Shown here in pieces: positions 11,548-12,003 of a stretch of DNA of 64,000 nucleotides; the first letter of the stretch is position 1, and each line of letters opens with the position of its first letter. The stretch lies in the sequence record MT150133.1; one strand, given 5' to 3'. Below the pieces are notes generated by a model. The model saw nothing but the letters and a program-made list of their open reading frames with translations, made no database searches and had not been told where the DNA came from. The translations under genes were made by a program, and so were the position numbers. The stretch is from Enterobacteria phage vB_EcoM_IME540.

Positions 11548-12003
11548 TTATTTTAGGTCTTCAGCCCAGTCGAGCTTCAAGGGTTCTTTATATTCTCTGT
11601 CTAAAACAACAGGAATCTGGACATCTCCACTAAAGCTAAGTGGTCCTACATTATAAGACAGGGTGATATGAGGGGTGTAATCATCAAAATCGTGCGTAGC
11701 ACCTAAGGTACGAGCATACTGATGGCGGCATTTAAGATACTCTGAATTGAGAACCAAAACCAGGACAGGAGAATCACCGTGTTTCCATACTTCAAGATGT
11801 CCTGACGAAGCAACTTCAAAACTTCCGGATGCAACGGTGTATGGAACGTTGACTCTTGAATAGCAGATTGTAGAATGGAATTTTTCACGAGGAACTGGAT
11901 TAGGAACCTTTAAAGTGCGCTGAAGATTTTCCAGCGCATCTAAAGTTAATTCAGAGAATTTTGCAGCAACGTATAGACCTTGAGCAAAATCTTCGGTTTT
12001 CAT
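11548..12003 (-). CDS. acb1: 2H phosphoesterase, gene 57B type (Acb1 anti-CBASS cyclic-oligonucleotide phosphodiesterase family)
   Basis: 151 aa; two H-x-T/S motifs (HSTICYS, HITLSY); position directly downstream of 57A as in T4. Confidence 0.8.

Follow-up and report, generated by a model that had tools for sequence, protein, structure and literature searches.

Gene 57B, which lies on the minus strand of the window analysed here (the whole 64,000-nucleotide stretch of phage DNA), very probably encodes the Dhakavirus ortholog of T4 Acb1 (57B), a 2H phosphodiesterase that cleaves CBASS signals and thereby blunts CBASS. The assignment draws on a significant match to a single protein family, on close identity to the T4 enzyme and on the retention of every catalytic and ligand-contacting residue characterised in it. 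From this homology we infer cyclic-nucleotide cleavage, the substrate range and a CBASS counter-defence phenotype for the protein. A literature search found no tested Dhakavirus Acb1, and the two names occur together only in a database survey.

The reference point is the T4 protein. Using activity-guided fractionation of infected lysate, Hobbs et al. 2022 (PMC9117128) traced the degradation of 3'3'-cGAMP to T4 57B, which they named Acb1, and they also assayed lysate of a T4 Δacb1 phage for cyclic-nucleotide cleavage. The substrates of T4 Acb1 include cGAMP, cUA and cAAA, whereas cGG and cA4 are left uncut, and nine further homologs all cleave both cGAMP and cAAA (PMC9117128). For T4 Acb1 and these homologs, cleavage of cGAMP and cA3 takes place 3' of adenosine and needs no metal. 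Within the T4 enzyme, H44, T46, H113 and T115 are catalytic, Y12, W74, F107 and W147 stack on the bases, and E141 contacts the adenine N6; the H44A substitution abolishes activity, and the H44A/H113A double mutant is catalytically dead (PMC9117128). Residues 145-152 act as a lid, which shuts over the cGAMP ligand and whose W147 stacks on a base, and the same study solved the structure of Acb1 from phage FBB1 (PMC9117128). Experiments with T4 Δacb1 have shown that T4 Acb1 counters CBASS operons in E. coli.

The gene 57B reading frame and its motifs

The acb1 reading frame begins with an ATG at 12003 and ends with a TAA stop at 11548-11550 (Table 1). This ATG is the earliest start codon of the open frame, and the encoded protein contains no internal Met. 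Because the Tyr at residue 11 is essential, a downstream start could not yield a functional Acb1. The pattern H-x-[TS] occurs exactly twice in the 151-residue protein, at residues 43-45 in its first half and 112-114 in its second, and this is the pair that marks members of the 2H superfamily. The preliminary description of the locus had quoted the two motifs as HSTICYS and HITLSY, and both are present in the frame in precisely that form.

Table 1. Features in and around gene 57B, in order along the window (coordinates in nucleotides of the window).
Feature	Position	Strand	Details
Promoter-like site before trna.4	10940-10968	minus	near-identical to the site past the acb1 stop; TTTACA, 16-17 nt spacer, TACTAT, TG extended -10
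Ip9, internal head protein gene	10972-11244	minus	downstream of Ip8
Ip8, internal head protein gene	11246-11470	minus	downstream of acb1
Promoter-like site past the acb1 stop	11508-11535 (11501-11535 in a wider delimitation)	minus	TTTACA, 16-nt spacer, TACTAT, TG extended -10; consensus scan match alone
acb1 (gene 57B) CDS	11548-12003	minus	151 aa plus TAA stop
C-terminal lid, residues 144-151 (LDWAEDLK)	11551-11574	minus	includes stacking residue W146; from T4 alignment
Catalytic motif 2, H112-I113-T114 in HITLSY	11662-11670	minus	codons CAT ATC ACC; corresponds to T4 H113/T115
Catalytic motif 1, H43-S44-T45 in HSTICYS	11869-11877	minus	codons CAT TCT ACA; corresponds to T4 H44/T46
Gene 57A, tail-fibre assembly chaperone	12003-12248	minus	Pfam GP57, E=1.8e-28; PHROG 1002 'tail fiber chaperone'
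Gene 1, dNMP kinase	12241-13002	minus	Pfam DNMK, E=5.6e-90; overlaps 57A by 8 nt

Family assignment and conserved residues

A Pfam search returns Acb1 (PF23474) as the one significant family, with 197.8 bits and E=8.9e-59; residues 8-149 of the protein align with positions 1-144 of the 144-position model. The best match in the PDB is Acb1 of Erwinia phage FBB1 (7T26/7T27; E=1.2e-58), which is 65% identical and shows one single-residue indel in 140 aligned positions. Both scores are far outside what chance would give. An AlphaFold2 model built from the single sequence reached a mean pLDDT of only 39.3 and was discarded as unusable, so the 2H phosphoesterase fold is assigned through the identity to the 7T26 crystal structure. 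On this basis, a compact 2H fold with a U-shaped ligand pocket, as in FBB1 Acb1, can be assumed.

The comparison with T4 57B/Acb1, the 57B of the T4-type genome, is closer still. The two proteins align over 151 residues without gaps and are identical at 129 of them (85%), which, with the Pfam match, bears out the earlier proposal that this is a protein of the T4 57B/Acb1 type. All nine residues characterised by Hobbs et al. 2022 are kept. The catalytic tetrad appears as H43, T45, H112 and T114, in a numbering one lower than that of T4, the four stacking aromatics as Y11, W73, F106 and W146, and the adenine-contacting glutamate as E140. The preliminary description had named the catalytic histidines as the residues whose absence from a proper alignment would count against it, and the alignment with T4 retains both. 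The lid reads LDWAEDLK here and LDWADDLK in T4, a single D-to-E change, and the C-terminus ends at the same point. Moreover, H43, T45, H112, T114 and Y11 are invariant in a family alignment of nine sequences (the window, T4-type, FBB1, Serratia Muldoon, Aeromonas 50AhydR13PP, Acinetobacter KARL-1, RB16, Vibrio nt-1 and Salicola SCTP-2), in which the most distant member is 30% identical to the window protein.

The 22 differences from T4 lie at the N-terminus and at residues 26-32, 42, 56-58, 74-79, 86-99 and 148, and they are most concentrated at the N-terminus, at residues 56-58 and in the 74-79 loop. None of them hits a characterised catalytic or ligand-contacting residue. F42, an Ile in T4, adjoins the catalytic His, and the diverged 74-79 loop lies beside the stacking Trp; with these among the substitutions, subtle differences in kinetics or specificity are possible. 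It is nevertheless very improbable that the Dhakavirus allele is a natural 'tuned' Acb1 whose substitutions, F42 and the 74-79 loop in particular, would measurably alter its substrate range or its kinetics, such that it might spare the decoy nucleotides monitored by Panoptes and still destroy CBASS signals.

The same substitutions bear on a broader alternative, in which the protein has a true Acb1 fold but acts in vivo mainly on something other than CBASS, such as the cA3 of type III CRISPR or of other cA3 systems, or has a substrate range shifted from that of T4. Acb1 degrades cA3 in vitro, is described as able to remove the signals that CBASS and type III CRISPR use, and sets off type II Panoptes, a guard system based on cA3 (PMC13577387, PMC13580996). 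However, the residues that differ from T4 are not those known to bind or cleave the ligand, T4 Acb1 itself counters E. coli CBASS operons, and cA4, a common type III CRISPR signal, is not cleaved according to Hobbs et al. (PMC9117128). The sequence gives no sign of a shifted range. A main target outside CBASS, or such a shift, has little probability, and an Acb1 directed at CBASS signals remains the preferred reading.

One weaker match in the PDB concerns a different protein. The Acb1 query aligns at E=0.024 with residues 498-617, in the C-terminal part, of the portal protein of cyanophage Pam3 (8HDS), where HVTIAYS and HISLS correspond to the two catalytic His-x-Thr/Ser motifs of Acb1. This suggests that the Pam3 portal protein carries a 2H/Acb1-like domain fused to the portal.

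Acb1 and the 'RNA ligase' label

PHROG 755 is described as 'RNA ligase', and the same name stands in the RefSeq records of QL01, IME08 and other phages. Taken literally, it would make the protein a 2H enzyme that works on RNA, whether as a LigT-like 2'-5' RNA ligase or as a cyclic phosphodiesterase in the healing of RNA or tRNA ends. The H-x-T/S pair, being common to the entire 2H superfamily, would fit such an enzyme, tRNA genes lie nearby, and Pfam gives a weak match to 2_5_RNA_ligase2 (PF13563; E=0.063, 13.8 bits, residues 69-122). This score, however, lies well below the curated Pfam cut-off of 27 bits, which applies to 2_5_RNA_ligase2 and to Acb1 alike and which the Acb1 match exceeds. 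A scan of NCBIfam returns no family for the protein at E<=1, indicating that NCBI has no curated model for it. Furthermore, activity-guided fractionation singled out the T4 ortholog as what degrades cGAMP in infected lysate (PMC9117128), none of the elements that form the cage around a cyclic dinucleotide (the residues Y, W, F, W and E, plus the lid) has been lost, and the literature consulted contains no RNA ligase activity for any 57B protein.

An RNA-directed function is accordingly highly improbable, and the 'RNA ligase' reading was rejected on its sub-threshold Pfam score and on the biochemistry of the T4 ortholog, which points to cyclic oligonucleotides. The RefSeq and PHROG 755 name is a superfamily-level mislabel, and the correct name is anti-CBASS protein Acb1.

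Proposed mechanism

By homology with the T4 enzyme, Acb1 of this phage would bind those CBASS signals that are cyclic di- or trinucleotides with one or more AMP units (3'3'-cGAMP, cUA, cA3 and cAAG). The bases of the ligand would stack on Y11, W73, F106 and W146, while E140 would read the adenine N6, and after binding the C-terminal lid would shut over the ligand. The adenosine would then be held in a twisted form, with its 2'-OH attacking the 3'-5' phosphodiester over H43, T45, H112 and T114 in a metal-independent reaction. The ring is predicted to open via a 2',3'-cyclic phosphate intermediate, yielding a linear 3'-phosphate product. As the signal is depleted, CBASS effectors, including nucleases, phospholipases and others, would stay inactive, and the infected cell would not abort.

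Gene neighbourhood

The minus strand of the window carries genes 3, 1, 57A, 57B, Ip8 and Ip9 in this order. Genes 3, 1, 57A and 57B abut or overlap, and genes 2 and 3 are separated by 82 nt. The gene directly upstream of 57B is indeed 57A, as had been proposed from the sequence: the Pfam GP57 match identifies it, and the final A of its TAA stop is also the first base of the 57B ATG (TAATG), the junction reading ...GAAGAAGAATAATG. The block 3-1-57A-57B is common to records of Tequatrovirus, Dhakavirus, Tulanevirus, Lazarusvirus, Pseudotevenvirus, Mylasvirus and Muldoonvirus.

On the other side, Ip8 and Ip9 match PHROG 8765 and PHROG 7673, which comprise internal virion or head proteins. Together with T4 IPI, they have a common N-terminal stretch of 10 residues, MK(T/S)YQEFI(A/T)E; the remainder is unrelated, at 24-27% identity. 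This pattern is consistent with rapidly diversifying injected internal proteins whose N-terminus is of the capsid-targeting type. In T4, Acb1 adjoins the anti-restriction gene ipI, as in an anti-defence island (Hobbs et al., PMC9117128), and the position of acb1 beside internal-protein genes in the window is the T4 arrangement of acb1 followed by ipI.

Promoters and expression

Within this run, 57B probably forms the terminal cistron of the polycistronic 1-57A-57B unit, with coupled translation. The promoter-like site just past its stop sits in a 10-bp inverted repeat, AGGTCTATAG...CTATAGACCT. The site probably serves Ip8 and bounds the acb1 transcription unit on its 3' side, and the repeat, which is not followed by a T-run, could double as a weak terminator hairpin. 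Sigma-70-like promoter matches number 12, compared with 7.8 ± 2.6 in shuffles, which is no excess, and none of them is established for acb1. Upstream of 57B, a search for a MotA box found none. The canonical late promoter TATAAATA occurs on the minus strand between 9000 and 16000 only at 14974-14981, upstream of gene 4. In T4 infection, cGAMP-degrading activity becomes detectable at about 15 min.

The late-promoter motif upstream of gene 4 is one of two that stand back-to-back, at 14959 on the plus strand and 14974-14981 on the minus strand, in the 45 bp that separate the divergent genes 4 and 53.

Relatives, distribution and selection

The 2.2 kb around 57B matches Escherichia phage QL01 (Straboviridae, Tevenvirinae, Dhakavirus) at 99.9% identity, and the 57B genes of the two do not differ in a single base. 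An identical copy of the gene is also already on record for Shigella phage PSD9. Across the first 25 kb of the window, the best match to any deposited phage is about 95-97%, with gaps, which makes the window a mosaic Dhakavirus of the JS10/QL01/IME08 group. More widely, tblastn finds homologues of 57B in 1,470 of 50,697 phage records, from hosts that include Escherichia, Klebsiella, Shigella, Acinetobacter, Vibrio and Aeromonas.

Against T4, 57B shows 72% nucleotide and 85% amino-acid identity, with a dN of 0.15. Only dN was computed, dS being inestimable at saturated synonymous sites (NG86 returned -1, and LWL85 and YN00 gave no estimate). The lower nucleotide than amino-acid identity, together with this saturation, argues qualitatively for purifying selection. 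An inactivated acb1 remnant retained by its operon position, as in BASEL phage Bas43, is hardly credible at all: natural loss-of-function alleles do exist, namely the nonsense mutation of Bas43 and the point mutations of Bas35 Panoptes escapers, but the gene here is full-length with no frameshift or premature stop, its catalytic and binding residues are all intact, its amino-acid conservation is strong across saturated synonymous divergence, and in 1,461 of the 1,470 records with a match, 80% or more of the protein length is covered. The pseudogene reading was therefore rejected on the intact frame and residues and on purifying selection.

Other differences from QL01 in the window

Elsewhere in the window, several segments depart from QL01, and two of them concern mobile endonucleases. 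In QL01, genes 3 and 2 are separated by a homing endonuclease gene of 654 bp (L001 5779-6432). It is absent from the window, where a short intergenic gap takes its place at 13593-13682 (junction 13677/13682). Conversely, the window has a 211-residue GIY-YIG/NUMOD3 (seg-like) homing endonuclease ORF at 15596-16231 on the plus strand, between genes 53 and 5 and overlapping both at its ends; QL01 lacks this ORF, and its genes 53 and 5 abut. The ORF is a second presence/absence polymorphism of a mobile endonuclease relative to QL01.

Structural genes also differ. The fibritin (wac) ORF at 29817-31979 on the plus strand encodes 720 residues, compared with about 529 in QL01, and is about 574 bp longer. 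The additional part includes a 93-bp unit repeated 2.4 times at 31644-31864, with a coiled-coil, heptad-like translation (TRLG/TAAEGK...TLETGLAAVKVESDKVA). The segment at 38974-39841, flanked by the genes for the tail sheath (18) and the tail tube (19), is unrelated to its QL01 counterpart. It contains an ORF of 227 residues at 39155-39838 on the plus strand, with Cys pairs and a C-terminal 'DHRVS...N' that appears HNH-like by eye; this ORF has no Pfam match at E<=0.01.

The window holds only two tRNA genes, Arg-TCT and Met-CAT, at 8716-8790 and 9503-9573, both on the minus strand, compared with at least six in the corresponding region of a T4-type record. The sequence flanking the two genes also differs from QL01.

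Implications for CBASS and Panoptes

The acb1 of this phage is an unremarkable ortholog of an anti-CBASS enzyme that has been characterised in detail, and the gene is already known. The practical yield is an annotation fix, as the widespread practice of calling 57B orthologs 'RNA ligase' misleads. Homology predicts that the phage resists CBASS systems that signal through cGAMP or cA3.

The same activity can be a liability. In type II Panoptes, cA3 keeps the effector repressed, and removal of cA3 by Acb1 fires it (PMC13577387, PMC13580996). BASEL phages with an intact acb1 (Bas35-37) are restricted by Panoptes, and the escapers are Bas43, with a nonsense mutation in acb1, and Bas35 mutants with acb1 mutations (PMC13577387, PMC13580996). 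Because the allele in the window is intact, both the CBASS benefit and the Panoptes liability are expected, and by homology the phage may be sensitive to type II Panoptes sensing cA3 depletion (PMC13577387). The status of acb1 is useful for choosing therapy phages and for predicting host range.

Comparison with known systems

Compared with T4 Acb1 (NP_049750.1), the window protein has the same tetrad, aromatics and Glu, and its gene holds the same position, after 3-1-57A and before internal-protein genes. Beyond the 22 substitutions, these distinctions set the locus apart: the protein is shorter by one N-terminal residue, 57A and 57B overlap by 1 nt (TAATG) instead of the 4 nt of the T4-type record, and two ip genes, Ip8 and Ip9, follow acb1 on its 3' side where T4 has ipI. 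The FBB1 Acb1 structures, 7T26 for the apo form and 7T27 with 3'3'-cGAMP, have a catalytic tetrad that aligns exactly with that of the window protein. FBB1 carries Phe at the site of W73/W74 and Tyr at that of F106/F107 (window/T4 numbering), both conservative aromatic swaps.

Poxvirus cGAMP phosphodiesterases offer a parallel in viruses of eukaryotes. According to a summary (PMC12064943) of Hobbs et al. (Cell 2025), these enzymes resemble Acb1 in having a phosphoesterase fold, aligned active-site residues and signal cleavage, and a poxvirus gene can substitute for acb1 in a phage. By the same summary, they differ in targeting the 2'3'-cGAMP of cGAS-STING and in having an N-terminal lid, whereas the lid of Acb1 is C-terminal (PMC12064943).

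The LigT and 2'-5' RNA ligase families (PF13563, PF02834) share the paired H-x-T/S motifs with Acb1 and probably the overall fold, and these shared 2H motifs account for the 'RNA ligase' label of PHROG 755. Their substrates, however, are RNA ends and not cyclic oligonucleotides.

Other phage proteins reach a similar end with folds and mechanisms unrelated to those of Acb1. Acb2 and Acb4 are sponges, which sequester the signal instead of cleaving it; Apyc1 is a Zn-dependent phosphodiesterase of the MBL fold that acts on cyclic mononucleotides; and AcrIII-1 is a ring nuclease for cA4, a molecule that Acb1 cannot cleave. Like Acb1, all four remove the nucleotide messenger rather than attack the sensor or the effector.
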